DNA of 61,317 nt from an uncultured virus (IMG/VR IMGVR_UViG_3300024518_006364) (Duplodnaviria > Heunggongvirae > Uroviricota > Caudoviricetes), in IMG/VR virus record IMGVR_UViG_3300024518_006364. One strand, 5' to 3'. Both the position numbers and the translations under genes were made by a program. Positions 1,576 through 61,317 of this stretch are shown here, piece by piece. The notes below the pieces were generated by a model. It had not been told where the DNA came from and ran no database searches. It saw nothing but the letters and a program-made list of their open reading frames with translations. The first letter of the stretch is position 1. Every line of letters starts with the position of its first letter.

Positions 1576-1669
1576 TCTCCGTAAATCAGCTATCCTTTTC
1601 AGGTAGAAGATAGAGTAGTGCAGTGAAGACTCTGTCTTCGCCTTCATTTTTCCGAGAAAGGAGCGTCCA

Positions 1670-2044
1670 ATGTTCTTGTTCACAGATGAAGCCCTGACCA
1701 TCGGCGGTCAGGTTGTCATTGCCGCTTTCTTGGCAGCATTTGTCCTGCTACTTTGGAACTTCATGGTCGGGCAGTACCACGGGTGGCGTTTTGGTGTTGC
1801 TCTCCACCACCACGATGTCCGTTCTGCCGCGCATCATTTGCGGTGGTTCAACTTCGAGGCCCGTTGTGCCTACGCGGCAAAGCTCATCCAGAGACGCCCA
1901 GAGTTCGAGGCCACAATGTTCCGGGTGAGCTGCATGATCCACCTGATGGACGGAGGAAGCCGGGAGGCGTGGTTGCTAAGCATGCGCCCACACGTCCCCC
2001 CGTACGTTGTGGACAAGGCGCGGAGGGCCGTGAAGGGGAGCTAA
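1670..2044 (+). CDS. Hypothetical membrane protein
   Basis: AAGGAG RBS; N-terminal transmembrane segment. Confidence 0.6.
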   Translation: MFLFTDEALTIGGQVVIAAFLAAFVLLLWNFMVGQYHGWRFGVALHHHDVRSAAHHLRWFNFEARCAYAAKLIQRRPEFEATMFRVSCMIHLMDGGSREAWLLSMRPHVPPYVVDKARRAVKGS

Positions 2045-2090
2045 AAATCCCGCTTTACGCGGTAAAAGGTGGGGTCCCCAAGATACCCCC

Positions 2091-2118
2091 TTGACAGCCG
2101 TTGGCGGTCGTGCATACT
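2091..2118 (+). promoter_or_regulatory. Sigma70-like promoter for the RNA cluster
   Basis: TTGACA-16 nt-CATACT directly upstream of tRNA-fMet. Confidence 0.6.
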
Positions 2119-2130
2119 GGGGCGGTCTGG

Positions 2131-2206
2131 TGCAGGGTGGCGCAGTTGGCAGCGCGTTGGGCTCATAACCCGAAGGTCGAGGGTTCGAGTCCCTCTCCTG
2201 CTACCA
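2131..2206 (+). tRNA. tRNA-fMet (CAT), initiator type
   Basis: Cloverleaf, unpaired 1:72, three G-C pairs in anticodon stem, CTCATAA loop, encoded CCA. Confidence 0.93.
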
Positions 2207-2418
2207 AAGAAATGAGGTCGAGGAGCACATGGACGGACAACCAACACCAAGTGAGTCAGGAGACATTCCCGGCGATCAGACCGACGGGGACTATCCTTGG
2301 TTTCACGTGTCCTGCCCTCTGACAACAGAATACAAATCACAATTGCGGGACAGCCGTCTCTCGTAGTCCCGTTCCCATCTTTCTTCTACAGAAACAGAGC
2401 CGAGAGACGGACTTCTCT

Positions 2419-2489
2419 CCCCGGACTGGGGAACACATACAGGACAGGACAACCTTCGGGCTCTTGTCTCTGCCCCGGTCCGGGGGCCA
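2419..2489 (+). ncRNA. Rod-shaped RNA 1 ending GCCA
   Basis: 13-bp terminal helix 2419-2431/2473-2485, 5'-side bulge, cUUCGg hairpin, unpaired G-CCA. Confidence 0.65.
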
Positions 2490-2501
2490 TTCTTCTACAA
2501 T

Positions 2502-2581
2502 GCCCCGTATCAGCGACAACCATGGGCTCGGGTTCCGAGGGGCCCCGAGGTCTCCGAGTCGCGCGCTGGTAAGGGGCGCCA
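2502..2581 (+). ncRNA. Rod-shaped RNA 2 ending GCCA
   Basis: Terminal helix 2502-2515/2564-2577 (one mismatch), inner hairpin, G-CCA. Confidence 0.6.
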
Positions 2582-2594
2582 TTGAATGTTCTAT

Positions 2595-2664
2595 GCCCGG
2601 AGTGTGGGCTGATGCTGAATAAACCCTTCGGGGAATGCAGGCTGATCTCGCGCTCCGGGCACCA
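2595..2664 (+). ncRNA. Rod-shaped RNA 3 ending ACCA
   Basis: 14-bp helix 2595-2608/2647-2660, CCC-UUCG-GGG hairpin, A-CCA. Confidence 0.65.
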
Positions 2665-2665
2665 T

Positions 2666-2738
2666 CCCCGGGCCACGCGGCTTTGTAAGACAGACTCCCT
2701 GCTGGAGAGCAGGGGTGCCGCGTGCTCCCCGGGGGCCA
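2666..2738 (+). ncRNA. Rod-shaped RNA 4 ending GCCA
   Basis: Helices 2666-2672/2728-2734 and 2674-2681/2717-2724, 5' bulge, inner hairpin with GGAG loop, G-CCA. Confidence 0.65.
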
Positions 2739-2814
2739 TTAAAACCCCGGACAGCCTGTCCACATGTCATGGGACACGCTAGTGGGCTGTTCGTACTCTC
2801 CTTGCGGGGGTGAA

Positions 2815-3186
2815 ATGATGAAGACGAGTACGATGGCTGGTGGTCGAGTCTGTGTCTATGTTCCTGGCCATCCTGCGGCCAACGGCAGTGGTTACATCCT
2901 TCGATCGCGGTACGTCATGGAACAGAAACTGGGACGCAGGCTTCGATCTGACGAAGAGGTCCACCACAAGGATGAGAACCCCACCAACGACGAGGAGGAC
3001 AACCTGGAACTCCTGTCTAAGGCAGAGCACACCAGGCTTCACTGCAAGGACGGAAAGCGGCGCAGACTGGACTACGATCGTATTCGGGAGCTACGCCTAC
3101 AGGGGTTGGGATACAAGAGGATCAGCAATGCCACAGGGTATCCTCGAAGTTCGGTAAGGTCGGCCATCGCAACCATGAATCTGTAA
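2815..3186 (+). CDS. HNH homing endonuclease with C-terminal HTH
   Basis: YVMEQKLGRRLRSDEEVHHKDENPTNDEEDNLELL...HTRLH HNH motif; C-terminal LGYKRIS..TGYPRSSVR helix-turn-helix. Confidence 0.85.
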   Translation: MMKTSTMAGGRVCVYVPGHPAANGSGYILRSRYVMEQKLGRRLRSDEEVHHKDENPTNDEEDNLELLSKAEHTRLHCKDGKRRRLDYDRIRELRLQGLGYKRISNATGYPRSSVRSAIATMNL

Positions 3187-3187
3187 G

Positions 3188-3558
<371 letters not shown>

Positions 3559-3670
3559 AGAATGACCGCGAGTAGCGTAGCTCGCGTTGTTCGCAGCTGG
3601 CTGGGCACCCCTCCGGGGTGTCCGGTCTTTTTCCAATGTGTTCAGTTCCAAACCAAGCAAGGGGAGAAGA

Positions 3671-4021
3671 ATGGAAGACGAGACGACCGAGAAGACCGAA
3701 GGGGCATTCGTAGCCTCGCTGAAGCGCAACAACCGGCAGATCAAGGACGACAGGGCCGAGGCGATTGCCGAGGATGCGCAGATGCGCTATCGCCGGACGG
3801 TCGAGGATCTGGACATGGAGATCCGGCGCATGAGGCGCCAGCGGGAGAACATGCTGGACATGTCCCCCGACAACACCCTGAGCCTGATGGTGGCGAACGA
3901 CTTCGATTCCGCCGAGTTCGTGACCAGAGACATCAAGCTGGGCATCGCCATCCGCGAGGCCGAGATCCGGCTGGAGATCGCCCAGAAGCAGTACGATCGT
4001 CTCTTCACGGGAGGTGAGTGA
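3671..4021 (+). CDS. Helical/coiled-coil hypothetical protein, first gene of the vWA-PurA operon
   Basis: GGGGAG RBS; stop overlaps next start (TGATG). Confidence 0.75.
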   Translation: MEDETTEKTEGAFVASLKRNNRQIKDDRAEAIAEDAQMRYRRTVEDLDMEIRRMRRQRENMLDMSPDNTLSLMVANDFDSAEFVTRDIKLGIAIREAEIRLEIAQKQYDRLFTGGE

Positions 4022-4914
4022 TGGGACACAGCAGCTATTCCTCCCACACCCGCTCGGCGAGGGCAGAGACAAAGGGCTACCACACCAAGCCTGCGGAGCA
4101 GATCTTCGAGAGCAGCATGAACAACGCGATGAGCCCGCACGGTGTCACGCTGCGCGAGGCACGCGACTCCGAGGCGCACCCCTGTTCGATCCCGATCTTC
4201 CTCGGGCTGGACACGACCGGGTCGATGGGACCGATCCCGCTCTTCCTGGTCAGGAACGGGCTGCCGCACATGGTGGAAACGATCATCAAGGCCGGGATCC
4301 CAGACCCGCAGGTGCTGTTCACGGGGATCGGCGATCACGAGTGCGACCGCGCCCCGCTCCAGATCGGTCAGTACGAGTCCGGCGACGAGGAGCTCGACCA
4401 CTGGCTGACCACGCTGTGGCTCGAGGGCAACGGCGGCGGCAACTACGGTGAGAGCTACCTCCTGGCGTGGTTCTTCGCCGCCCTCTACACCGCCCATGAC
4501 CACTTCGAGAAGCGCGGGAAGAAGGGGCTGCTGTTCACCATCGGCGACGAGCCCACCCTGAAGGAGCTTCCCGCGCGTGCCCAGAAAGCCCTCATGGGCG
4601 ACGGTCAGTACTCGGACATCACGAGTGCGGAGCTGCTCGACAAGGCCCGCGAGACGTACGAGGTGTTCCACCTGCACATGCTCCAGGGCAGCAAGGGGCT
4701 GCGGCCGGAGGTCCAGGACGGCTGGAAGCAGCTGCTGGGAGACGACCACGTCATCATGGTGCAGGACAAGGCGGACGTCGCGCAGATCATCGCCGATACG
4801 GTGCTGAAGGTGGTGAACGCCCAGAACAGCGGCACCACGCAGGCGCCCGGCCCGCAGGACGTTCAGCAGAAGGACGACGATGGCGATGGGGGCGACGGCC
4901 CCATGATGCTGTGA
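4021..4914 (+). CDS. von Willebrand factor A (vWA) domain protein
   Basis: MIDAS-like LGLDTTGSMG, IGD, EGNGGGNYGESY and FTIGDE motifs. Confidence 0.8.
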   Translation: MGHSSYSSHTRSARAETKGYHTKPAEQIFESSMNNAMSPHGVTLREARDSEAHPCSIPIFLGLDTTGSMGPIPLFLVRNGLPHMVETIIKAGIPDPQVLFTGIGDHECDRAPLQIGQYESGDEELDHWLTTLWLEGNGGGNYGESYLLAWFFAALYTAHDHFEKRGKKGLLFTIGDEPTLKELPARAQKALMGDGQYSDITSAELLDKARETYEVFHLHMLQGSKGLRPEVQDGWKQLLGDDHVIMVQDKADVAQIIADTVLKVVNAQNSGTTQAPGPQDVQQKDDDGDGGDGPMML

Positions 4915-6044
4915 ACGCGCACGCCGTAATTGGCATGGGTTTCGGTGACGAGGGCAAAGGACTCGTCACCGATTACCTGTGCTCCCTCGCACCAGACGAC
5001 ACAGAAGTAGTCCGCTTCTCTGGCGGACACCAGTGCGGACACAAGGTCGTCAGGGGTGCCAAGGAGCACATCTGCTCCAACTTCGGGTCGGGCACACTGC
5101 TCGGGTGTCCGACGCACTGGTCGAAGCACTGCACGTTCGAGCCTGTCGGCTTCATGAGAGAGCGTGCGTTGCTGATGAGCAAAGGTATCGAGCCCGTCAT
5201 CAGCGTGGACCCGGACTGCCCGGTCACGACGCCCTACGACATCCTGGCGAACATCCACGCTCCCGAGATGGAGCACGGTACAACCGGGACGGGCTTCTTC
5301 AGGACCAAGAAGCGGCACTACCAGGACGGGCTGAAGCTGACGGTCGGAGACCTGCACAACGAGGCGATGAGCGACGTGAACCGAAAGCTGGATGAGATCC
5401 GGGCCTACCACGGAATGCCGAAGGACTTCTCGGTTGAGGAGCCGTTCCACTTTGCGTGGAGGAGCCTCGGAGAGTGCGTCCTCCTGGCCATGCGGCCCGA
5501 ACGTGAGCGTCGCGTGTTCGAGGGAAGCCAGGGGCTGATGCTCGACGAGAACATCGGCACCATGCCGCACTGCACCCCGTCGGATGTGACGCCGAGGAAT
5601 GCACTGGAGATGGCCATCATCGACGAGGTGTGGCTGGTCTCCAGGGTGTACCAGACGCGGCATGGCAACGGGCCGATGACCAACGAGGACCGCCCGGTGG
5701 TTCTCAAGAACACCGACCACGAGACGAACAAGCATGACGAGTTCCAAGGTGAGTTCAGGACAACCGTGCTGGACCTCGACCAGCTGATGCACGCCAAGAC
5801 CAAGGGCATCGATGCCGTGGTCCCCGAAGGGACACGTGTCAACCTGGTGATGACCTGTGCCGACCAGGTCGAGAGGTACGAGTTCACCGAGAACAGGGTG
5901 CCCTTCTCGTTTCGTGACGTGGACCCCTTCGTACGCGCCGTCGGCAAAGCTCTCGGAGTGAACGGAAGCCTCTACGTGAACACGAGCCCTCGCTCTTCCA
6001 CGATCAGACAAGTAACGATTGGTGGCCAAGCGACGGCTGTCTAG
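4911..6044 (+). CDS. purA: Adenylosuccinate synthetase-like protein
   Basis: GMGFGDEGKG, GGHQCGH, FEGSQG, TRHGNGP motifs; GTG start overlapping upstream stop. Confidence 0.85.
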   Translation: MNAHAVIGMGFGDEGKGLVTDYLCSLAPDDTEVVRFSGGHQCGHKVVRGAKEHICSNFGSGTLLGCPTHWSKHCTFEPVGFMRERALLMSKGIEPVISVDPDCPVTTPYDILANIHAPEMEHGTTGTGFFRTKKRHYQDGLKLTVGDLHNEAMSDVNRKLDEIRAYHGMPKDFSVEEPFHFAWRSLGECVLLAMRPERERRVFEGSQGLMLDENIGTMPHCTPSDVTPRNALEMAIIDEVWLVSRVYQTRHGNGPMTNEDRPVVLKNTDHETNKHDEFQGEFRTTVLDLDQLMHAKTKGIDAVVPEGTRVNLVMTCADQVERYEFTENRVPFSFRDVDPFVRAVGKALGVNGSLYVNTSPRSSTIRQVTIGGQATAV

Positions 6045-6592: not shown

Positions 6593-6655
6593 GGATCGCG
6601 CGTAGCTAAGGTTTCATCTTCCACATGACACTCCTTGGCGTTTTCATCGCGGTCC
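6593..6655 (+). ncRNA. Y RNA-like 3, minimal
   Basis: GGATCGCG/CGCGGTCC and GCTAAGG/CCTTGGC helices; same motifs. Confidence 0.72.
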
Positions 6656-6749: not shown

Positions 6750-6885
6750 TGTCCGCGCGAGGTAAAGGTTTCATCACGGAGCTGGAGGTCGCAGGTTTGA
6801 GTCCTGCCCCCGCGACCACTAATGCGGGGTAGCTTAGTTGATAGAGCGCCAGCTTAGAAACTCCTTCACCGTTACATCGCGGACA
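6750..6885 (+). ncRNA. yrlA: Y RNA 5, YrlA type (permuted tRNA domain)
   Basis: TGTCCGCG/CGCGGACA stem; GCTGG/CCAGC, T arm GCAGG-TTTGAGT-CCTGC, loop-closed acceptor CCCCGCG/TGCGGGG, D arm. Confidence 0.85.
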
Positions 6886-6889
6886 TTTT

Positions 6890-7086
6890 TTCGAGAGTTC
6901 GATGGACCCTGTGAGTGAATGTTTGCACCTCGGACAACCCGGGATCAGCCGACGGCCAAAGCCCCCGGGTAATCGCCGCCCTCCAACACTGTTCCACTGG
7001 AGACGCCCTCCCAGGAGGATGTCGAGGTAAAGGTGGCATGTTGGATCAAGGGCTGTATAGCTCCCAGGGCCCATCGAACTTTCGAA
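6890..7086 (+). ncRNA. Candidate ~195-nt multibranched structured RNA
   Basis: Long closing stem TTCGAGAGTTCGATGG..CCCTG / CAGGG..CCATCGAACTTTCGAA; inner ACCTCG/CGAGGT enclosing three hairpins. Confidence 0.55.
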
Positions 7087-7089
7087 CTT

Positions 7090-7164
7090 GGTGCATTAGT
7101 GTAGCGGCCAGCACGCTGGACTGTCTATCCGGTATCACGGGTTCGAGTCCCGTATGCACCGCCA
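7090..7164 (+). tRNA. tRNA-Asp (GTC)
   Basis: Cloverleaf, CTGTCTA loop, GCCA. Confidence 0.92.
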
Positions 7165-8113: not shown

Positions 8114-8179
8114 CTCAGATGGTAGAGCGTTAGCCTTCCAAGCTAATGGTCGCGAGTTCGATCCTCGTCGTCCGGTCCA
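8104..8179 (+). tRNA. tRNA-Gly (TCC)
   Basis: Cloverleaf, CTTCCAA loop, TCCA. Confidence 0.92.
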
Positions 8180-8214
8180 AATGCTACAATGTGAACAGAA
8201 ACAGGGGAGGGAAC

Positions 8215-8613
8215 ATGAACGTTTTTTTAGATGACCAGCTGGGTTGTCCGGAAGACCACCCCAACGGGAAGTGGCGCTCACGCCTGATCGGGGGGATCAA
8301 TGATGACCCGATGCTCGAGTGGGAAGTAGTCAGGACCGTCGAAGACTGCATCACGCTCTTGGAGCTCGGCGGCGTTGAGATTCTATCGCTGGACTACGAC
8401 CTCCAGTGGACAGACCAAGAGCATACGGGGAGAGATGTCCTGCGGTGGCTCTACAAGAAGGTCACCGAGGAGCTCAACACCGACGTCGTGCCCAAGAAGA
8501 TCCACATTCACTCGGGGCATCCCAAGGGGTCGTACAAGATGATGGTCGACGTAGGTACGATCGAGAGGCGCGTCCACGCCCTCAAGGTGCAACGTGAACG
8601 AGAGGGAGCGTAG
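8215..8613 (+). CDS. Cyclic-phosphate-processing receiver domain protein (cREC-like)
   Basis: VFLDD...WEVVRT...LSLDYDL...TGRDVLRWL...IHIHSGHP pattern; GGGAGG RBS. Confidence 0.75.
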   Translation: MNVFLDDQLGCPEDHPNGKWRSRLIGGINDDPMLEWEVVRTVEDCITLLELGGVEILSLDYDLQWTDQEHTGRDVLRWLYKKVTEELNTDVVPKKIHIHSGHPKGSYKMMVDVGTIERRVHALKVQREREGA

Positions 8614-9016: not shown

Positions 9017-9102
9017 GGAAGGTGAACCTGACGTTGGGTTGGGGTCCGGTTGCTAGCCGTGACGTGCGTGAGCATGGGGATCGAGTCCTCCGCCTTCCGC
9101 CA
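9017..9102 (+). tRNA. tRNA-Ser (GCT), atypical D and T arms
   Basis: GGAAGGT/GCCTTCC acceptor, TTGCTAG loop, variable arm, GATCGAGT T loop, GCCA. Confidence 0.7.
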
Positions 9103-9907: not shown

Positions 9908-11611
9908 ATGGACGCGAAGAAGCGAGGAGTTCTCCAGGGCGTGCAGAGCGCGACCCATCAGCAGAAGCGGCAGTCCCGAGCGGGGCAGCTCTTCGGCTCG
10001 ACCCCCACCCCCGACACGAAGAACGCGGACAGGTTCCCCGCGTTCTCTCACGGGCTCCGGCGTGAGCTGGCCAAGATGGCGCTCACGGGGCTCGTGCAGA
10101 ACCGGTACTACTCAACGGCCAAGGAGCAGGCTGCTGAGATGGTACACCTGTGCGTCCAGGGCGCGAAGGAACACCCCGAGTTCGCGCTCCGCTGCGCGGT
10201 TGCCGCTCGCAACCAGAACATGAAGCTGAGCCCGGTCATGCTTCTGGCCGCGGTCGAGGCCTACTCCCCGGACACCGCGAAGCGGTACGACGAGGCCATC
10301 CTCAAGGTGCTCGGCACCTTCCACGCCAGAGGCCTGCTCGAGTTCGCCGAGATCTTTCGGAACAAGGTCTTCGGCAAGGGCCTGGGGTCGCGACAGCAGC
10401 GTCTCCTGCGCACGGTGATCGAGCGCACTTCGGACGCCCGGTTCGAGGAGTGGACGCTCAAGTACCGTGACACGGTGCGCATCCTTGGCATGCTGGTGCA
10501 CGCACAGGCCGACCGGCCCGCGTGGAACTACTGCATGAAGGGAACGGGCAAGGGTGCGCCCGTGACTCCGAAGCAGGTCGCAGCCAAGGCCCTCCAGAGC
10601 ATCACGAACCCGCGCCAGTTCGCCGAGAAGCTGGTCGAGTCCGGCGTGCCCTGGGACGCTGTGAAGGCGTTCGTGCCCAAGGATCCGGTGGCCTGGGCGG
10701 CGATCATGATGAATTCAGGACCCATGGCGGTCCTGTTGAATTCCCGGTCGTACGCCGAGCATCGGGTGTTCGAGGCCCGTGAGGCCCGCGACTGGTACCG
10801 CGACTGGGCGCTCAACAAGATCCCGACTTCGCGGATGTTGCCCATCGACGTGATCAAGGCCTACGAGCACGTCGGGAACGCGGACGTCCAGGCCTACCTG
10901 ATGGACGGACTGGCGGAGCAGCTGAAGGCCATCGCCAACGGCCCGAAGCTCCCGCTCAAGACGGCCATCCTGATGGACATCTCGAGATCGATGAAGGGCA
11001 AGGAGATCCGGCAGCAGGGCGTGATGGCGGCGACGCTGTCCCTGAAGACCGATCCGGTCTTCGTCGCGGCGTTTAACCGGGGGCTCTTCGTCGATGGCTC
11101 TTCCACCAACTGGGGGAAGGACCGTGGCCCGGCAGTGGACATGTGGCCCGGATACGGTCCTGACCGTGGACGTTGTCCGCGCGTGCAGGGCCGAACGGAT
11201 TTCTCGGAGCTGCTCCGAGACCTGGTCGAGATGCAGCCGACGGGAGGGACCGACACCGGGATCGGTATCCGGTATCTGCACCAGAACCGGATCGAGACCG
11301 ACCTGATCCTGTTGCTGACCGACGAGCAGCAGAACTACAGCGGCGGCCCCACCGATCGTCACACCTTGGCGTACCACGACTTCAAGGCCTACCGGGAGTC
11401 CGATGCGGGACGCAACGCCCATCTGTCAGTGATCAACGTGGCCGGGGAGAAGTGGCACAACTTCCCCGATCCGGATCGTGACCCGAACATCTCGGTGTTC
11501 TGCTCGATCCACCCCTCCGTGCTCCAGCTCGCCGAGAGCCTCACAGGCGACCCGGTCGCCGGGATCGAGGCCATCTCGCTCGACGTCGAAGTCGTAGAGC
11601 GCGCGGGCTAA
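9908..11611 (+). CDS. rsr: Ro60/Rsr (TROVE + vWA) RNA-binding protein
   Basis: Helical TROVE-like region (LTG..NRYYST, FAL..A..AR...MK, SRMLPID...AY) plus vWA MIDAS DISRSM, GGTD, LLTDEQ; adjacent Y RNAs. Confidence 0.85.
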   Translation: MDAKKRGVLQGVQSATHQQKRQSRAGQLFGSTPTPDTKNADRFPAFSHGLRRELAKMALTGLVQNRYYSTAKEQAAEMVHLCVQGAKEHPEFALRCAVAARNQNMKLSPVMLLAAVEAYSPDTAKRYDEAILKVLGTFHARGLLEFAEIFRNKVFGKGLGSRQQRLLRTVIERTSDARFEEWTLKYRDTVRILGMLVHAQADRPAWNYCMKGTGKGAPVTPKQVAAKALQSITNPRQFAEKLVESGVPWDAVKAFVPKDPVAWAAIMMNSGPMAVLLNSRSYAEHRVFEAREARDWYRDWALNKIPTSRMLPIDVIKAYEHVGNADVQAYLMDGLAEQLKAIANGPKLPLKTAILMDISRSMKGKEIRQQGVMAATLSLKTDPVFVAAFNRGLFVDGSSTNWGKDRGPAVDMWPGYGPDRGRCPRVQGRTDFSELLRDLVEMQPTGGTDTGIGIRYLHQNRIETDLILLLTDEQQNYSGGPTDRHTLAYHDFKAYRESDAGRNAHLSVINVAGEKWHNFPDPDRDPNISVFCSIHPSVLQLAESLTGDPVAGIEAISLDVEVVERAG

Positions 11612-54082: not shown

Positions 54083-54703
54083 CTAGATCAGGCGGGCCAT
54101 TTGGAAGCTGGCGAGCGGAAGCGCTGCGGATGCCAAGTGCGACAGGAACGCGGGCCCCAGCGTCTTGATGTCCTGCCACTTATTCTCGCTGCGCTTCAGT
54201 GCGTTCAACGTAGCTCCCAGTTCCTCGGTCAGCACAGGGGCATTCGCTGCGGCCGTAATACCTGTCATCAAGTTTAACACTTGGTTGCGTGATTTTGCAT
54301 CCTCCATTAAAAGCCTTACCGCGAGTGCCGCAGGGATGGCCAGGGAATTGGCCACATTGGCGATGCTGCGCGCGGCTCCGAGGAAGGTTTTGTAGTAGGA
54401 AGCGTCCTCCAGATTCTCAGCGTGCCCAAGCTCGTGCCCCAAGATTGCGCCCGAAGGTTCCCCCACAACGATTCCCCCGCGCCCGGAATCGTTGGTCATG
54501 TACATCCCGCGCCGAGGCGTGGGGCGCAAGGAGATGGGGAGCTTTGCAAGATCCGGGCGGGCCCGGAGAAACGCGCGAGCTACCTGGGCGAGTTCTTGTG
54601 CTTGTGGCGGCGTGGGCTTGATTGCCGCGCCGGACGAGACGACGTTGACGGGATCAACAAGAGCCCGAAGTGCTTGCAGAGAATCCTGGTTGATGCTTGC
54701 CAT
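54083..54703 (-). CDS. Zincin-like metallopeptidase (HExxH...E)
   Basis: ILGHELGH and LTEELGA; hydrophobic segments. Confidence 0.65.
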   Translation of the reverse strand: MASINQDSLQALRALVDPVNVVSSGAAIKPTPPQAQELAQVARAFLRARPDLAKLPISLRPTPRRGMYMTNDSGRGGIVVGEPSGAILGHELGHAENLEDASYYKTFLGAARSIANVANSLAIPAALAVRLLMEDAKSRNQVLNLMTGITAAANAPVLTEELGATLNALKRSENKWQDIKTLGPAFLSHLASAALPLASFQMARLI

Positions 54704-54918: not shown

Positions 54919-56349
54919 CTACGAGGAGAGCGCGGCCATCATGCCGGTGAGACGGGCTGTGGCCTCCTTCTCTGCCTCTTCCTCTTCCTTCTTCTCGGCC
55001 TCTTCCGGATCGGATTCGGCGGCCTCGCCCTCGGCCTCGCGCTTGTCGCCCTGCATCTTGGCGAGGAACTGGGCCTTCTCCTCGTCGGTGGCGAGCTTCA
55101 TCAGATCCTGCACGGCCGCGACCTTCTCCGCGTCCGGCATCGAGGCAGGCATGAGGGGAACTGCGATGCGCGCCATCTTGTCGAAGGCGTCCTTGTACTC
55201 CTCGGCCGTCTTGCCCACGAAGCTGATGACCTGGCTGGCCTGCGGCGCCGTGTTCGGGGGCTGGTTCGGGTGAGGCGCTGCCGTGCCGACGTAGCCCGCG
55301 CCTTCGCCAAGGGCGGTCGCCGTCGTGCCGACGCCCGCTTCCCCCTGGTTGGCGTAGTTCTTCGGGCGCTCCTGCTCTTCCAGCGCGGCCTCGGGGGTCT
55401 GCTTGGCCGCGACCGCGAGGTCGATCGGGTTGGTCGGCTGGCCGTCGATCAGAGGTCCCTCGACCTTGGGATCGCCCATGCCGATGCCCGCGGTGGCCTG
55501 GGCACTCTTGACCGTCTTGATCATGTGGAGGGCGGTCTTGAGAGCGCCTTCCTTCTGCGCCGGGACATCCACCACCTCGGATGCCTGGGGCGCCGAGTTC
55601 GGGGGCTGGTCCGGGTGGGGAACCTGCACGCCGGTCATGCCTGCACCCATCCCGATGTTGGTCGGGGTCGTGCCGACGCCCGCCTCTCCCTCGTTGGCGT
55701 AGTTCTCGGGGCGCTGTCCCGCCTCGAGTCCTGCCTCCGGGGTCTGCTTGGCGGCAACGGCCAGCGTGTCCGCCTTGGTCGGCTTGCCGTCGATCAGGGG
55801 TCCCTCGACGCTGGGCTCGCCCATGCCGATGCCCTTGGCGGCCTGGGCGGTCTTGACCTCTTCGTGATACTGGGCCAGGGCGATGTTGACGTGCGCCAGC
55901 TTGGTTGGCCCGTGGGCTGCCAACTTCTGCATGTCTTCGGCGTTGGCTTTCTTCTCCGCCAGCATGACATGGGCCGAAGCCGCCTTGCCTGTGATGTTGG
56001 CGAGGGCCTCGGCCAGGGCCGCGACCTCCTCGGGCTCCATCGCGAGGCCTTCGCTCGGCGCGTCGGCGCCCATGGGGGGCATTCCGCCCTCGGCACCCGG
56101 AGGCATTCCGCCCTCGGCACCCGGAGGCATTCCGCCCTCGGCACCCGGAGGCATTCCGCCCCCACCGCCTCCGGCGAGAGCTGCGTCGGCCATGGCGGCT
56201 TGCATCAGCTCGTCCTGGCCTTCCTCCGGAATTGCATCCGCGGTCGCGTCCGCAATCGCGTTGGCATCTTCCTCCTGCGCGAACTTGAGGATTCCTGCAT
56301 CGGCGAGGCAGGCGGCGATCCCTCTCACGTACGCTCTCCGCATCGGCAT
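54919..56349 (-). CDS. Scaffold/polyprotein-like head protein with duplicated ~100-aa module
   Basis: More than 10 KxA motifs; two repeats starting VKTA and VKSA; GGMPPGAE tandem repeats. Confidence 0.7.
   Translation of the reverse strand: MPMRRAYVRGIAACLADAGILKFAQEEDANAIADATADAIPEEGQDELMQAAMADAALAGGGGGGMPPGAEGGMPPGAEGGMPPGAEGGMPPMGADAPSEGLAMEPEEVAALAEALANITGKAASAHVMLAEKKANAEDMQKLAAHGPTKLAHVNIALAQYHEEVKTAQAAKGIGMGEPSVEGPLIDGKPTKADTLAVAAKQTPEAGLEAGQRPENYANEGEAGVGTTPTNIGMGAGMTGVQVPHPDQPPNSAPQASEVVDVPAQKEGALKTALHMIKTVKSAQATAGIGMGDPKVEGPLIDGQPTNPIDLAVAAKQTPEAALEEQERPKNYANQGEAGVGTTATALGEGAGYVGTAAPHPNQPPNTAPQASQVISFVGKTAEEYKDAFDKMARIAVPLMPASMPDAEKVAAVQDLMKLATDEEKAQFLAKMQGDKREAEGEAAESDPEEAEKKEEEEAEKEATARLTGMMAALSS
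56078..56161. repeat. 24-bp tandem repeat, 3.5 copies (GGMPPGAE)
   Basis: Unit GGCATTCCGCCCTCGGCACCCGGA. Confidence 0.9.
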
Positions 56350-56438
56350 TTTCTTGTCCTCCCTGGTTGTCCAGGCTTGTTCTTAATCCTGGTTCACGAT
56401 ATTACAAAAGCCACCGTCAAGTGCCAAGTTTATTTTCC

Positions 56439-57236
56439 CTACTCGGGGACGGCCCCGAAACTCCTTCGGACGATTTCCCCAAGTCCTCCCATACGTGCGG
56501 GGGGCGTTGGACGCGGAGAACCAAGCTGGCGTTCAAGACTTCGCTGCTGCGGTGACTGCGGGTCGAACACGCCTCCTGCGGCCTCGCCGATGGATTCTCC
56601 TGCTGCTGTTCCAGGAATAAATCCGAGGGCACCGAGCGGGCCCGTCAGCGCCCACCCGAGAGAGCTCCCCAACTCACGTCCAATCTGTTGCCCGGTGGAA
56701 TAGCGAGGGTCGCCTCCGGTGGCCAAGGTGCTTCCGATGCCATAGGCAGGGAATCCGAGGATGAACGCTTTGGAAAGCATGTCACCAGGGGCTGCGCGTG
56801 CGAGGGCCCACGCGCGTTCAGGAGTGAGTCCTTGGTGCCTGATGTTCCGCGCGGCGCTCGCGACCTCGGGGGACCACGCCAACTCTCCACGGAGGAGGCC
56901 CCCTTTACCGAGTAAACCGCCTGTGTGGTAGCGCCCCTTGAGAGTTCGGAGTCCGTGATTGCCGACAAGAAGCGAACGCAACATGCCGGAGCCCTGTCCG
57001 GGGGGCGTGCGATAGTGCCCGAGAGACGCAGGGTCTGCGGTCTCGATCCACTTCATGAAGCGTCCTGGCTCCAGGGCACTGTAGTCGGCGGGCTTGCCCG
57101 CTGCCACAAGTCTTTTTCGGAGCGCGGCGAGGCCTTCCATCTCTGCGGACTGAGCGCCACGTACTCCTTTTCCAAGCAAGGCCGTGCGCAACCCACTGAG
57201 GATTTTGCCGGGGTTGACCGGAGGGAGAGGGGGCAT
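56439..57236 (-). CDS. Basic glycine-zipper protein
   Basis: TGATG overlap with RNAP gene; GxxxG repeats. Confidence 0.6.
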   Translation of the reverse strand: MPPLPPVNPGKILSGLRTALLGKGVRGAQSAEMEGLAALRKRLVAAGKPADYSALEPGRFMKWIETADPASLGHYRTPPGQGSGMLRSLLVGNHGLRTLKGRYHTGGLLGKGGLLRGELAWSPEVASAARNIRHQGLTPERAWALARAAPGDMLSKAFILGFPAYGIGSTLATGGDPRYSTGQQIGRELGSSLGWALTGPLGALGFIPGTAAGESIGEAAGGVFDPQSPQQRSLERQLGSPRPTPPARMGGLGEIVRRSFGAVPE

Positions 57237-59044
57237 CAGTATTTACCTCGCGCTGAAGGTAGCCCGAAACTTTGTCCATAGGCAAGAGCTGGGATGGGAT
57301 TGAACCCCCGAAGACGGGCTGTCCCGCCTGAGTGAACCCCTTCCAGAAGAGCCGTCTTGAGATAACGGTGTCCCATGCGTGACAGAACATCCGGATTGAG
57401 GAGCGGGTTACGCGAAAGCGGCTTCATCACGAACTCGAGGCGCGGGGCCTCTCCGGGAGGAAGCGTTTTCACCTTGGAAATTTTGGCCTCGCGCAGCGCG
57501 TCTTGCACGGACTTTGTGATGGGAGAGCCCGCGGTGAAGTGCAAGTAGTCATCCCCGAGTACGTGCCCCTTTGTCTCTTTAAGCGAACGTTCCTTGGAGG
57601 CCTCACGAAGACGCCCGCGAAGAGCAGAGTGTGCCACCATGTCACCTGCACGGAGGCCGGGGATGCTTCCCGGATCCCAGATCTGGGCGTAGTTCAGGTG
57701 CGTCTTGGCCAGGATTTCCAGGTGCCGTCTGTCGAGGTCATGCCCAGAGGACGAGTAAAGGTCGTCCAGCCGTTGGATGAGGTAGTCACGCCCCGCGCCA
57801 ATTCCCTTCAGGCGTGTAACGTCCTTGGGGTTGGGGATTCCGTCAGCGAGGGCGTCGCCCGCCTCCACGTGAAAACCAGGACGCACAAGAGGAGGAGCTT
57901 CGGGGGGCGTGTAGTACCGTTGTCCCGCGACGTGCATGTAGTGGCCGCCCTGTGGCGCCTTCTCGATTTTCTCGACCTTGCCTTCTTCCTCCGCGACGAC
58001 TGCCATGTTGGCCATCGAGGCAGGCACCTCGACAATTTGTCGCAATCGCTCGATGGTACGAAGCTCGCGTCCCTTGGTTGTGGACAGCTTCACTCCGTGT
58101 TTTGAGTCCAGGGCCATCTGAGTCAGCGGTTCGGAGAGGACCTGTCCCGCACGGACACCAACGTTGATCCCAATGTCGTGATTCTGCCCTACCTCGTTGA
58201 GCCCCATGCACCGTTGACAGATGCCATTTGGGAGCTCGCAGGTGGAAGGCGAGCGTACAACAACGAGCCCGCGAGTTCTGGCGAGTCGCTTGCCAACTTC
58301 AGCAGTGACAAGAGTGTTGTGCGGTAGGCCTGCTGCCGGTTTGGCAAGGTATCTGTCACGCAGTTCGGGGCTGTTTGAAGGAAGTGCGATCCCATTGGTT
58401 GTCCCACAATCCTCACTGGCGATGACTTGGTCCGCCATGTTGTTGATGAAGATCTTGCTCAAGTCTCCAGGCTCCGAGACGGACAGGTTGGCAGCCATCG
58501 CGTTGAGACGTGCTTCGGAATTTGCAAGCCACGCTTCGGCAGGGGACAGTCCCTCCGCGAAACTGTGGTGGATCAAGTAAGGGTACACCGTCTTGTCGTG
58601 CTTCATTGCCACAACGGGGGAGACTACGGTCTTGATGAGCTGGCTGGGGGAACCGCGGGCACCCGCCTCAACTTCGCGGGCCAGACTTCCAGGATGTGTC
58701 ATCGCCAGGTTCACGGCGCGCGACTGCGCGTCGGCGAGGACGGACAGCTTTTGAGGATACGTCCGTGCTGCATCTAGGCGCTTCTGCGCGCCCGCGAAGA
58801 GAGCTCGCTGTTTCACGTAGTTCGGAGTGATGTCGTCCAGTCCGGGGGAGAGGGGTTCCAGCGTGGCAACCTCATCTGCGACGGCCTTTAGCCCCTGCAT
58901 GTTGTGCACATAGGCAGTGGGGTCGTTCTTGGCCATGTCCAGAAAAGCAGAGCGCAGGCGGCGTTTGTTCAACGGGCCACGATCAAGACGCGTCCCCGGG
59001 GGGAGATATCCCTTGATCAGATGCTGCCCGAAGGAAAGGGTCAC
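57236..59044 (-). CDS. DNA-directed RNA polymerase beta' subunit, C-terminal part (split subunit)
   Basis: AGARGS, EGLSPAE, PGDLSK bridge helix, EDCGT, RSP.TC, ICQRC.G, NVGV.AGQ.LSEP.TQ..L..KH trigger loop. Confidence 0.9.
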   Translation of the reverse strand: MTLSFGQHLIKGYLPPGTRLDRGPLNKRRLRSAFLDMAKNDPTAYVHNMQGLKAVADEVATLEPLSPGLDDITPNYVKQRALFAGAQKRLDAARTYPQKLSVLADAQSRAVNLAMTHPGSLAREVEAGARGSPSQLIKTVVSPVVAMKHDKTVYPYLIHHSFAEGLSPAEAWLANSEARLNAMAANLSVSEPGDLSKIFINNMADQVIASEDCGTTNGIALPSNSPELRDRYLAKPAAGLPHNTLVTAEVGKRLARTRGLVVVRSPSTCELPNGICQRCMGLNEVGQNHDIGINVGVRAGQVLSEPLTQMALDSKHGVKLSTTKGRELRTIERLRQIVEVPASMANMAVVAEEEGKVEKIEKAPQGGHYMHVAGQRYYTPPEAPPLVRPGFHVEAGDALADGIPNPKDVTRLKGIGAGRDYLIQRLDDLYSSSGHDLDRRHLEILAKTHLNYAQIWDPGSIPGLRAGDMVAHSALRGRLREASKERSLKETKGHVLGDDYLHFTAGSPITKSVQDALREAKISKVKTLPPGEAPRLEFVMKPLSRNPLLNPDVLSRMGHRYLKTALLEGVHSGGTARLRGFNPIPALAYGQSFGLPSARGKY

Positions 59045-59286
59045 TTGATTCCCCAGTCGCCGGGGAGCCTCTCTGCCTGCCCAATGTTGAGCGGGATGGA
59101 ACGGTCAAACGTTAGCCCGTGCGGGTAGCCCGCAGGGGGACGCCCAACAAATCCAGAGGTGTTGTCGTACTTCATTCCTCCCCCGGGAAGTCCCACGCCC
59201 GTGTGCGCAAAGTCGCGCAGGGCTTCGAGGAAATCCTGGGGAGGCTCGCCGCCAGGCGCCCCAATCTTGGTGAGATCGATTGCCAT
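59041..59286 (-). CDS. Small protein with MAIDLTKIG tag
   Basis: Overlaps both neighbours; tag shared with 11702, 12157, 13059, 15491 ORFs. Confidence 0.6.
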   Translation of the reverse strand: MAIDLTKIGAPGGEPPQDFLEALRDFAHTGVGLPGGGMKYDNTSGFVGRPPAGYPHGLTFDRSIPLNIGQAERLPGDWGIK

Positions 59287-59711
59287 CAGACAGCCTTCTT
59301 GCTGGGCTCCCGTTTACCCCGGACCTCCTGCACCCAGTTCCACAGCTTGTCCAGGTAGTTCATCAACGGGCCGACCGCGAACACGAGGAGGGCCTCGTAC
59401 CACCGGATACCTGCGACCATCAATGCGCAGAGGCTGGAGACGGCACTGAGAAGAATGATGACGCCGGGTCCCCACTTCTTGAACCAGGGCTTCACTTTGG
59501 CGATTTTCTTCATCACGAAGATGGCCATCTGGATGAACAGCATGACGATGCCTGCCCACTGGCCGGTCTTGACGAAGTTCACCGCCGAGTCGGTCTGGGC
59601 GGCCAGGTCTGCGGACGAGGTGATCTCCGGGGGCTTGTTGGTGATGGTCTGGGCCGCGACCGTGAAGCCGAGGACCCATACGATGGTGAAGATGAAGAAT
59701 GCGATTCTCAT
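59286..59711 (-). CDS. Multi-pass membrane protein (holin-like candidate)
   Basis: GGAGG RBS; 3-4 hydrophobic segments, basic C-terminus. Confidence 0.6.
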   Translation of the reverse strand: MRIAFFIFTIVWVLGFTVAAQTITNKPPEITSSADLAAQTDSAVNFVKTGQWAGIVMLFIQMAIFVMKKIAKVKPWFKKWGPGVIILLSAVSSLCALMVAGIRWYEALLVFAVGPLMNYLDKLWNWVQEVRGKREPSKKAV

Positions 59712-59733
59712 GACAGTACCTCCGCGGAGTATT

Positions 59734-61020
59734 CTACGAGACCCTCGGCGGTTCGGCAATCTTCGGAGGCTTGATCTCCTCCACCTTGGGCACGTCGATC
59801 CCGCCTTCTCCTCCAAGCCCGGCTGCCGACATGCGCATCGGACGTCTTCCGTGCGTGCGTGCATCGAGCTTCTGGATGAACCATTGTTTCGGGTCTTTCC
59901 CCATCCGGCGCATGTTGAAGACCTTGTTCGAGCCGTTCATCACTTGGAAGATGATGCTGCTCAGATCTGCCTTGAGGATGTCAGCAGGTTTCGGGGCCTT
60001 GGTTTGTACTGTGCCTGCGCCGTAGCCTTCGGCAATTCGGCCCTGGAAGTTCTTGGCGTAGTCGGACGTGTGGTCAGGCTGCTGGACGGCCAGCAACTTT
60101 TCTCCAAGGCGTGACGGGAGCCGCGACTTCGGAATGGCCCAGGAGTGGGCGATGCCCGATTCTTCGTCAACGAGACGCATATCGTAGTGTGATCGTCCCT
60201 TGGACCTGTCCGTCTTGTGCTTCTGGATTGCCATGGAGAACGGGTCGCCCACGTCGTCGGGACGGATGGGTGTCGTGGTTCCCTTGTCGGGGAGGCCGGG
60301 GGCGAACTGCGCATCCTTGAGTCGAAGTTTTTCCGCGTACTCCAGAAGGCGCTTCCTCGTGACGAACTTTGCCACCTTGGCCATGCCCGGCTCAAACGCC
60401 CCGATGTCTCCCAGGTTGACCTTCATCGCCCTCAACCCCGTCGTAGCATTCAACGACCCGATGGCGCGGACAGAGCCCATGGGCTTCATTGCAACCATGT
60501 CGAGCCGGATGTCCTTGCCCTCCGGTTTCCGGAACGTCGTACCCTCGAGCCCCCGGAGAGCCCCCATCAGGGTAGCGCGCGCTCCGCGCGTGCGCATCAT
60601 TTTACCGATAGGGTGACGGACGTGGAATCCCCGCCCGCCGGAGAACGCAACGATCGTGTCCTCACTCGGGAAGCGGCTGTTGAGGACATCGACAACCGCT
60701 TGGGTCGCGCCCTTTACATCAGAAAACGAAGCATCAGGGCCCGGGTCAATGTCGACGACGAACTGCTCGGTGGTTTTCCCTGTGGTCGGGTGGAACTCGG
60801 CGTGGCGCCGCGAGGCCCAGTAGGAGATGTCCTGGGCATCGGGGATCTTGATGTACTTGCCACCGCGCTTCCGCTTGAAGATCTTGTCACCGTCCTCCTG
60901 CACTTGGACGACTGACACAGGACGTGAGCCGAACTGATTGAGCAGTTCGATCTGGACCTCGGGACGGGCGTAGTACTTCTCAACCTGGGAACGGGTGAGG
61001 CCTGGGAGGAGGTCAGCCAA
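59734..61020 (-). CDS. LigD-like primase-polymerase (AEP) fused to LigD 3'-phosphoesterase domain, no ligase
   Basis: VVDIDPG and FSGGRGFHV (AEP); IQKH...HYDMRL...HSWAIPK...DH..DY..F.G.I..GYGAGTV (phosphoesterase). Confidence 0.85.
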   Translation of the reverse strand: MADLLPGLTRSQVEKYYARPEVQIELLNQFGSRPVSVVQVQEDGDKIFKRKRGGKYIKIPDAQDISYWASRRHAEFHPTTGKTTEQFVVDIDPGPDASFSDVKGATQAVVDVLNSRFPSEDTIVAFSGGRGFHVRHPIGKMMRTRGARATLMGALRGLEGTTFRKPEGKDIRLDMVAMKPMGSVRAIGSLNATTGLRAMKVNLGDIGAFEPGMAKVAKFVTRKRLLEYAEKLRLKDAQFAPGLPDKGTTTPIRPDDVGDPFSMAIQKHKTDRSKGRSHYDMRLVDEESGIAHSWAIPKSRLPSRLGEKLLAVQQPDHTSDYAKNFQGRIAEGYGAGTVQTKAPKPADILKADLSSIIFQVMNGSNKVFNMRRMGKDPKQWFIQKLDARTHGRRPMRMSAAGLGGEGGIDVPKVEEIKPPKIAEPPRVS

Positions 61021-61317
61021 TCTTCACCGGGTCATCGAGCTTCAGCTTGCCCTGGTGGTATGCCTGCATTGCTTCCGCCTGGGTCTTGAACTTCTTCGCC
61101 TTGACGCCCTTTCGGGGACCATGTGAGGCGAGCCACGTTCCCAAGATAGCCTCTTGCTGGGGGAAGACCAGAAGGGCGTCACGCTGTTTGTCGGTGAACA
61201 GCATGTTGGGCAGTGTCAGCCTTTTGGCCTCGTCGTTGGCCGTCGGAGACGCAGGGACATGCAACTGAAGCGTGTCGCCATCGTAGTCGAGGTTCATCCC
61301 CTCCTCGATGTAAGGGT
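61013..61317 (-). CDS. RNA polymerase subunit carrying the catalytic DxDGD motif (3' end only)
   Basis: P....GMNLDYDGDT..LHVP, variant of NADFDGD; P.QEA.LG. Confidence 0.88.
   Translation of the reverse strand, partial: PYIEEGMNLDYDGDTLQLHVPASPTANDEAKRLTLPNMLFTDKQRDALLVFPQQEAILGTWLASHGPRKGVKAKKFKTQAEAMQAYHQGKLKLDDPVKIG

Follow-up and report, generated by a model that had tools for sequence, protein, structure and literature searches.

Can a phage transcript carry RNAs that end like tRNAs and lack every other part of one? The question is raised by four tRNA-sized hairpin rods encoded head to tail at positions 2419-2738 of a 61,317-nucleotide stretch of DNA (the window) from an uncultured virus of the Caudoviricetes (IMG/VR record IMGVR_UViG_3300024518_006364). 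A first-pass annotation, made from the letters alone, had placed this array between a tRNA-fMet gene and a tmRNA gene, which is correct; a 45-codon open reading frame (ORF) and an HNH homing-endonuclease gene also lie in that interval. We regard it as an evenly balanced proposition that the rods imitate the acceptor end of a tRNA without having an anticodon, are set free by RNase P and 3′ trimming, and act as working RNAs.

Four rods with tRNA-like ends

All four units, which we call U1 to U4, were found where the annotation had put them, on the plus strand:

2419-2489, plus strand: U1 rod, 71 nt; perfect 13-bp terminal helix, then G and CCA; T at -1
2502-2581, plus strand: U2 rod, 80 nt; helix of 5 bp, a G.A mismatch and 8 bp, then G and CCA; T at -1
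2595-2664, plus strand: U3 rod, 70 nt; 14-bp terminal helix, then A and CCA; T at -1
2666-2738, plus strand: U4 rod, 73 nt; helix of 7 + 8 bp across a bulge, then G and CCA; T at -1

Folded singly as RNA, each of the four units forms a GC-rich rod with paired 5′ and 3′ ends. In 4/4 units the terminal helix is preceded by a T and followed by one unpaired purine (G or A) and CCA, which bears out the reported U at -1 and 3′ RCCA. Terminal helices of 13-15 bp had also been described: the lengths hold in all four, and the helices of U2 and U4 are interrupted, by the mismatch and the bulge respectively. The interior of U1 consists of an 8-nt 5′ bulge and then a second arm with a cUUCGg cap, that of U2 has a 9-nt/3-nt internal loop, and that of U4 holds two hairpins; cUUCGg also forms the apex of U3, so that the two UUCG loops seen at first pass are those of U1 and U3. 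The linkers between the rods measure 12, 13 and 1 nt, U4 starting 1 nt after the CCA of U3, and the two longer ones have G+C contents of 3/12 and 3/13, against ~61% for the window. Sequence common to the units is limited to words of 8-10 nt, the last 10 nt of U1 and U4 being alike, and U1-U4 do not form an array of near-identical tandem repeats like those of type III antitoxins.

Neither ARAGORN nor Rfam (at gathering score) calls a tRNA or tmRNA over the rods or anywhere in 2207-3187, as the annotation had foreseen in saying that tRNA scanners would miss them. A search of 2200-3200 with Rfam 15 (cmscan, E<=10) returned nothing on the rods, its sole match (2749-2849, E 8) lying outside them; there was no match to the tRNA clan, and no cloverleaf with D, anticodon and T arms is present. 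What the units do have is the outer end of a tRNA: paired 5′ and 3′ ends, a discriminator base and CCA occur in 4/4 units of the window and in 2/2 rods of the relative described below. The features of hairpin-type RNase P substrates (a helix of at least 12 bp, 3′ RCCA and U at -1) are likewise present in 4/4 units, with helices of 13-15 bp.

Clustering above chance

The frequency of such elements was assessed with a purpose-written scanner, which reports units of 55-100 nt whose terminal helix measures >=12 bp, contains no more than one defect and precedes RCCA. On the two strands of the window it returned 11 places, three of them inside 250 nt at the rods; U4, with two defects, was missed. 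In sixty dinucleotide shuffles of the window the mean was 4.9 places (sd 1.9), and none of the 60 had three places within 350 nt. Matches with at least 13 bp and T at -1 numbered three in the real window, against a shuffle mean of 0.5 and a maximum of 2. For comparison, 795 kb of other loci held 64 matches in total, and a further 80 kb of the same phage, with no tRNA genes, held nine scattered matches and no cluster.

Two rods are kept in a relative

We wondered whether the array occurs elsewhere. GenBank phages yielded look-alikes of the tRNA-fMet only and no copy of the rod region. No copy was found in scans of IMG/VR either, where one record (L008) is the same phage and spans only window positions 56227-61044; another locus (L009) is related, at 76%, in the RNA polymerase region and nowhere else. 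When metagenomes were scanned with the protein encoded downstream, 80 loci were returned, one of which, L010 (11.6 kb; 63% amino acid identity in that protein), is syntenic. Among loci from a tmRNA-pattern scan, seven had a tmRNA and none a convincing rod upstream: a candidate in L215 appears to lie inside an ORF, as read from the sequence, and a hairpin in L253 is weak (-4.5 kcal/mol). In the 40-kb tRNA region of Caulobacter phage CcrColossus no rod adjoins the tRNAs.

L010 keeps the promoter hexamers, the tRNA-fMet and the small ORF, which are followed by two rods, 5 nt and the tmRNA. Both rods have T at -1 and RCCA, and apart from a 20-bit permuted-tmRNA hit spanning 1665-2055 they have no Rfam match. 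The first, L010 1758-1836, is the counterpart of U2, with 73/80 positions identical (91%). Its 9-nt loop and second helix are unchanged, the G.A mismatch has become G.G, and the remaining differences lie in the apical part. Conservation of the U2 interior equals that of the tRNA-fMet, and the flanking linkers are less conserved, with 7/12 and 7/13 columns identical.

The second rod, L010 1849-1917 (rod B), occupies the position of U3 and shares 38/70 columns with it, mostly the ends and the cUUCGg apex. Twelve base pairs can be counted in register between the two: all 24 cells are paired, and four pairs have changed on both sides. When the partner columns were slid by 1-3 positions as a control, 13-57% were paired and there were no double changes. 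Two further double changes, at pairs 10 and 11, can be made out by eye, shifted by an aligner gap.

The rods fold better as the plus strand

Folding energies were compared between strands for the four rods of the window, for rod B and for a similar rod in an unrelated phage contig (L060, described below); z values compare the plus strand with 200 shuffles.

U1: plus strand -42.3 kcal/mol (z -4.9); minus strand -34.3 kcal/mol
U2: plus strand -41.6 kcal/mol (z -2.2, equalled by 4/200 shuffles); minus strand -38.9 kcal/mol
U3: plus strand -36.7 kcal/mol (z -4.2); minus strand -22.0 kcal/mol
U4: plus strand -46.2 kcal/mol (z -4.0); minus strand -43.0 kcal/mol
L010 rod B: plus strand -46.2 kcal/mol; minus strand -27.9 kcal/mol
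L060 rod: plus strand -29.4 kcal/mol; minus strand -19.7 kcal/mol

The plus strand folds better in 6/6 rods, and the gap is large for U3, rod B and the L060 rod. The difference arises from G-U pairs, as expected of an RNA made from the plus strand and not of a DNA palindrome. With 2400-2770 folded in one piece, the individual rod folds persist (z -4.8). The ORFs that cross the rods have no family match, and none is kept in L010. Four DNA sequencing runs aligned over 2100-3600 are identical in sequence and offer no natural variants.

U3 and rod B end like tRNA-Phe and tRNA-Leu

At its two ends (7 nt on the 5′ side and 11 nt on the 3′ side, with T at -1, A73 and CCA) U3 is identical to an E. coli tRNA-Phe gene. 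These ends occur at 46 places in 31/301 sampled genomes of one bacterial phylum; as read from the letters of the anticodon loop, 24 of the places are tRNA-Phe-like, 21 tRNA-Leu-like and one is not a tRNA. Three places were fetched and submitted to ARAGORN, which confirmed tRNA-Phe and tRNA-Leu for the two tRNA-like ones. The ends of rod B were found in 3/151 genomes, always in tRNA-Leu-like sequence. Two controls in which the stem of U3 was permuted each matched in 4/101 genomes, at non-tRNA places throughout. As a lead, then, the slot shared by U3 and rod B appears to bear a genuine acceptor end of the tRNA-Leu/Phe type, which could be left over from an ancestral gene of that kind or could imitate a host tRNA.

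The rods would belong to one operon

The features flanking the rods, all on the plus strand, are as follows:

2091-2118, plus strand: sigma-70-like promoter, TTGACA, 16 nt, CATACT; 10/12 matches, the sole such site in 1600-4200
2131-2206, plus strand: tRNA-fMet (CAU), encoded ACCA; 61.6 bits
2229-2366, plus strand: 45-codon ORF between tRNA-fMet and the rods; conserved in L010
2354-2410, plus strand: 10-bp hairpin that overlaps the ORF stop, just 5′ of U1; sequence kept in L010
2764-3186, plus strand: HNH homing-endonuclease gene between the rods and tmRNA; HNH_3 5e-8, phrog_20891 3e-17
3188-3558, plus strand: tmRNA, tag ANDQTDEVIPLAA; G3:U70, encoded ACCA; 134.6 bits
3599-3627, plus strand: intrinsic terminator, 13-bp stem and T run; strong, ends the operon

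From this arrangement we infer a single transcription unit that would run from the promoter through tRNA-fMet, ORF, hairpin, rods, HNH gene and tmRNA to the terminator. A search for intrinsic terminators within the array weakly flagged only a sub-hairpin of U1, which has a mixed TTCTTCT tail and was set aside; the real terminator is the one at 3599-3627.

The layout of the rods is that of the tRNA genes around them. CCA is encoded in 18/18 tRNA and tmRNA genes of the window, several of which lie 1 nt apart, as U3 and U4 do across a single t. T at -1 is found in 6/6 rods of the window and L010, against 10/37 tRNA and tmRNA genes there, which has a hypergeometric probability of ~1 in 800.

The 45-codon ORF encodes a protein with 84% amino acid identity to that of L010, the C-terminal 27 residues being identical. 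Its last 30 codons differ from those of L010 by four synonymous and one non-synonymous changes. It has no Pfam family, and its best scores in Atlas look-ups were <=0.81. The hairpin at its end is possibly a 3′ end protector of this small mRNA. The HNH gene has further in-frame ATGs at 2815/2818, and 12 nt from the 5′ end of the tmRNA are directly repeated on either side of it (2806-2817 and 3188-3199); the gene is absent from L010 and looks as if it had been inserted at the start of the tmRNA.

Proposed maturation and function

Bacterial RNase P cuts hairpin models of the acceptor and T stems, pairs with the 3′ RCCA, contacts N-1 and uses the 12-bp stack as a ruler (PMC11143913). The rods offer the RNase P determinants and no other part of a tRNA, and we propose that RNase P releases them. 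Processing by the tRNA machinery, which the first-pass annotation had put forward, is probable in our view: the RNase P determinants (RCCA, U at -1 and an end-closing helix that reaches 12 bp or more), the tRNA-like gene layout and the two rods kept in L010 speak for it, and that the rods have been seen as DNA only speaks against it.

Host polymerase would transcribe the rods early, together with tRNA-fMet, the small ORF and tmRNA, from the host-type promoter. Host RNase P would then cut each 5′ end, at 2419, 2502, 2595 and 2666, and RNase E-type cleavage with 3′ exonucleases would strip the AU-rich linkers back to CCA, so that stable RNAs of 71, 80, 70 and 73 nt accumulate. These would act through the tRNA-like end together with the inner module specific to each unit, and would occupy proteins that read the acceptor helix and CCA end of tRNAs, in a phage whose genes nearby serve tRNA supply and RNA repair; that target is the most likely one, and the weakest step of the scheme. 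Antiphage toxins that modify the CCA ends of tRNAs and read the acceptor stem are described in two reports (10.1101/2024.07.05.602228; PMC10435456), and the tRNA-Leu/Phe-type end of U3 and rod B fits, without showing, an engagement of the rods with proteins that inspect acceptor stems. Doubtful, with a small chance of being right, is the wider extrapolation that phages carry a widespread class of RNA genes made of anticodon-less acceptor-end copies, from 35-nt minihelices to 70-80-nt rods, some of which copy host tRNA-Leu/Phe-type stems and act as decoys or inhibitors of proteins that read the acceptor or CCA end, such as antiphage toxins.

Several observations weigh against rods that are working mimics of acceptor ends. 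The conservation of helices and RCCA among relatives on which the first-pass annotation had staked its case holds for two rods, one of them with compensatory changes, and fails for U1 and U4, which like the HNH gene are absent from L010, the sole syntenic relative found; since they are missing there, U1 and U4 may be dispensable or recent. In the window copy, U2 does not retain its apical stem. Ends of the U1/U4 type were found in non-tRNA sequence only (8/151 genomes), as were ends of the U2 type (9/101), and the match of the U3 and rod B ends rests on two controls and on a genome sample possibly without the host. The reverse strands of U1 and U4 fold well too (z -3.2 and -3.5). The stretch is present in eight seawater runs, all of them DNA. 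Our analysis identified no partner protein, target or charging signal for the rods, and any decoy would face competition from the entire tRNA pool of the host.

Should the rods be made as predicted, the tRNA regions of phages contain RNA genes that escape tRNA finders, Rfam and ORF callers alike. If the scheme is true, RNase P would mature a family of viral small RNAs beyond tRNAs. The acceptor end of U3 makes a role in phage-host conflict over tRNA ends testable.

Alternative explanations

A limited chance attaches to the explanation that the rods are pure punctuation: RNase P cutting marks or end-protectors for the flanking tRNA-fMet, small mRNA, HNH mRNA and tmRNA, with no function of their own. 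They sit exactly between mRNA and structured RNAs in one operon, their number and identity differ between the relatives (four against two), and U3 and rod B keep the helix and little sequence, all of which speaks for such marks. A single mark, or the RNase P site of the tmRNA itself, would suffice for that purpose, however, and here there are 2-4 in tandem. Hairpins of 34-36 nt are enough elsewhere, whereas the rods measure 70-80 nt and have elaborate interiors, and the interior of U2 (9-nt loop and second helix) is conserved like the tRNA-fMet, with linkers at 7/12 and 7/13 columns. Because of the tandem arrangement, the sufficiency of ~35-nt hairpins elsewhere and the conserved U2 interior, we think, as our leading guess, that the rods do work as RNAs and are more than bare cutting marks. 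Even as cutting marks and nothing else, they would show how a phage punctuates mixed tRNA/mRNA transcripts.

The C4 RNAs of phages P1 and P7 and the CI RNA of P4 are antisense RNAs of tRNA size that are matured by RNase P and consist of a terminal stem and single-stranded segments. The first-pass annotation had suggested antisense guides among the possible roles, and the size, the terminal helix with CCA and the internal single-stranded segments of the rods resemble P1 C4 RNA; the U2 loop is moreover identical in L010. That the rods are regulators of this kind, which pair through their unpaired segments with phage or host mRNAs, is nonetheless improbable. No Rfam family of the C4/CI type, or any other, matched at E<=10, and no complementary target stands out in searches of complements and duplexes that covered 61 kb of the ~200-kb phage genome and no host. 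No other site in the window matches the complement of the U2 loop, and one site matches that of the U1 bulge, where 0.29 would be expected. For the five unpaired segments the best duplexes lie 4-5 sd from the mean of ~12,000 windows, like ordinary extremes, and are on the plus strand where genes run on the minus strand. The UUCG caps are structural rather than pairing loops. Unlike C4 and CI, the rods are also four unrelated tandem units in a tRNA/tmRNA operon.

At 54657-54670, 34 nt into the reading frame of a minus-strand gene (54083-54703), 14 nt of the apical part of U1 occur a second time (BLAST E 0.012). This second copy has the same sense as that gene and was judged a chance match.

PheRS requires the anticodon and LeuRS the tRNA elbow. 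This counts against a further suggestion of the annotation, that the rods are aminoacylated minihelices: charged by host synthetases, they would serve as amino-acid carriers or EF-Tu sponges. The RCCA end with a tRNA-type acceptor helix, and the tRNA-Phe/Leu-type ends with A73 in U3 and rod B, are what such a role would call for. The G3:U70 identity mark of minihelices, which is present in the tmRNA here, was seen in 0/7 rods read by sequence in the window, L010 and L060; D and T loops are lacking, and the ends of U1, U2 and U4 match no tRNA in the sampled genomes. We consider charging of the rods very improbable.

We give as little credence to explanations that deny the rods a function or place it at the level of DNA (tRNA genes in decay, GC-rich hairpins due to chance, terminators, or inverted repeats that serve the HNH endonuclease or recombination), which the evidence disfavours. 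Single hairpins are common in a GC-rich genome, as the 11 scanner places in the window illustrate, U1 is weakly terminator-like, and an HNH gene is adjacent. The cluster was seen in 0/60 shuffles, however; G-U pairs make the fold strand-specific, compensatory changes have accumulated, and RCCA and T at -1 accompany 6/6 rods. Rfam finds no remnant of a T arm at E<=10, L010 has two rods without an HNH gene, and no conserved ORF crosses the rods.

Least credible are Y-RNA-like partners of a phage Ro60/TROVE protein: a Ro60-like gene (9908-11611) lies 7 kb downstream, and Y RNAs are stem-closed and can mimic tRNA (PMC4201824), but the rods have no YrlA or Y RNA match (6766-6866 has one, 35.2 bits), L010 keeps two rods with no Ro60-like gene and no YrlA-like match free of tRNA genes in its 11.6 kb, and the GNCGAA motif given in that source was not seen on reading the rod sequences.

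Comparison with known RNAs

Non-decoding RNAs processed with or like tRNAs are encoded by other viruses: the tRNA cluster of phage T4 contains stable non-tRNA RNAs, and murine gammaherpesvirus 68 encodes tRNA-like RNAs that do not decode. These differ from the rods in structure and host.

Two further hairpin substrates of RNase P resemble the rods (PMC11143913). Synthetic minihelices share with them an end-closing helix of at least 12 bp, 3′ RCCA, cleavage at the base of the helix and the RCCA and N-1 contacts. They are laboratory constructs of ~35 nt with a T loop, whereas the rods are natural, measure 70-80 nt and have bulges and a second arm but no T loop. Precursor 4.5S (SRP) RNA is likewise a long hairpin, and RNase P recognises its paired ends in the absence of a cloverleaf (PMC11143913). 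It differs from the rods in size and motifs, and the rods have no SRP family match.

The tRNA-like domains of tmRNA and YrlA, both kinds of which occur in the window, are like the rods in being non-decoding RNAs that borrow tRNA parts. YrlA of M. smegmatis is cut by RNase P and receives CCA (PMC4201824). Both RNAs keep T and D arms, whereas the rods keep the closed helix and CCA only.

Similar hairpins in other phages

In an unrelated phage contig rich in A+T, the L060 rod occupies 7069-7142 (plus strand). It has a length of 74 nt, a 13-bp helix, T at -1 and GCCA, has 54% G+C in a 30% G+C context, and stands right after the stop codon of a protein gene and 14 nt before tRNA-Pro. It has no homolog among the loci that were fetched.

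Xanthomonas phage Xoo-sp2 and Variovorax phage VBv52 have a 36-nt ACCA-ended hairpin at 660-695, 4 nt before tRNA-fMet. In Stenotrophomonas phage QDWS359 our script flagged no CCA-ended hairpin; on reading, the tail is changed. Like the rods, the 36-nt element is a hairpin followed by one base and CCA that stands beside a tRNA gene and has no anticodon arm. Unlike them, it is half the size and a single stem-loop, and there is no sequence similarity. A literature search that covered few subscription journals found no paper on natural CCA-tailed hairpins of phages. Judged by sequence, the rods may be the long, tRNA-sized variant of CCA-ended hairpin genes of phages, with a helix kept by compensatory change.

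The phage and its tRNA region

The source phage is a GC-rich giant that is known from metagenomes alone. It has a piece of a multisubunit RNA polymerase, a PurZ-like gene and none but remote relatives in GenBank, and 16 further tRNA genes lie near the rods. The PurZ-like gene (4911-6044, plus strand; 70% amino acid identity in L010) matches Pfam Adenylsucc_synt (1e-29) and phrog_1211, '2-aminooxy adenylosuccinate synthetase' (7e-45), and the phage may thus replace adenine by 2-aminoadenine in its DNA.

Within the tRNA array, 8146-8613 (plus strand) encodes a 155-residue protein in which a receiver domain for cyclic-phosphate processing, cREC_REC, was recognised (E 1e-18); the protein is 80% identical in L010. 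The divergent Ro60/TROVE-like protein encoded ~7 kb downstream of the rods (9908-11611, plus strand) matches PDB 9kop/9l5y (E 2e-7) and phrog_850. A review of jumbo phages groups cRec and TROVE proteins with RNA-repair systems (PMC7824862). The YrlA-like match at 6766-6866 (plus strand; E 6.6e-5) has T-arm- and D-arm-like parts and stays below the Rfam threshold of 69 bits. An 11-nt word, AAGGTTTCATC, occurs three times in this region, at 6608, 6678 and 6765 (plus strand), with spacings of 70 and 87 nt, and may mark several Y-RNA-like units or be a phage promoter motif. The neighbourhood of initiator tRNA, tmRNA, tRNA array, cyclic-phosphate protein and Ro60/Y-RNA pair is suggestive of a part of the genome devoted to attack on and repair of the translation machinery.

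Both ARAGORN and Rfam overlook a tRNA-like gene at 9017-9102 (plus strand), directly after tRNA-Ser. Its acceptor stem of 7 bp is followed by G and CCA, a loop of 7 nt can be read as the anticodon GCU (Ser), and the arms are odd.

After the tmRNA, the gene at 4018-4914 (plus strand) codes for a vWA-like protein in which a D-x-T-G-S-M motif is invariant. The family comprises 2460 members at E<=1e-10, and chromosomes of Chryseobacterium and Flavobacterium as well as cluster-C-type mycobacteriophages commonly encode it. At the far end of the window, 59734-61020 (minus strand) encodes a protein with the primase-polymerase (E 2e-10) and 3′-phosphoesterase (E 6e-10) domains of LigD.

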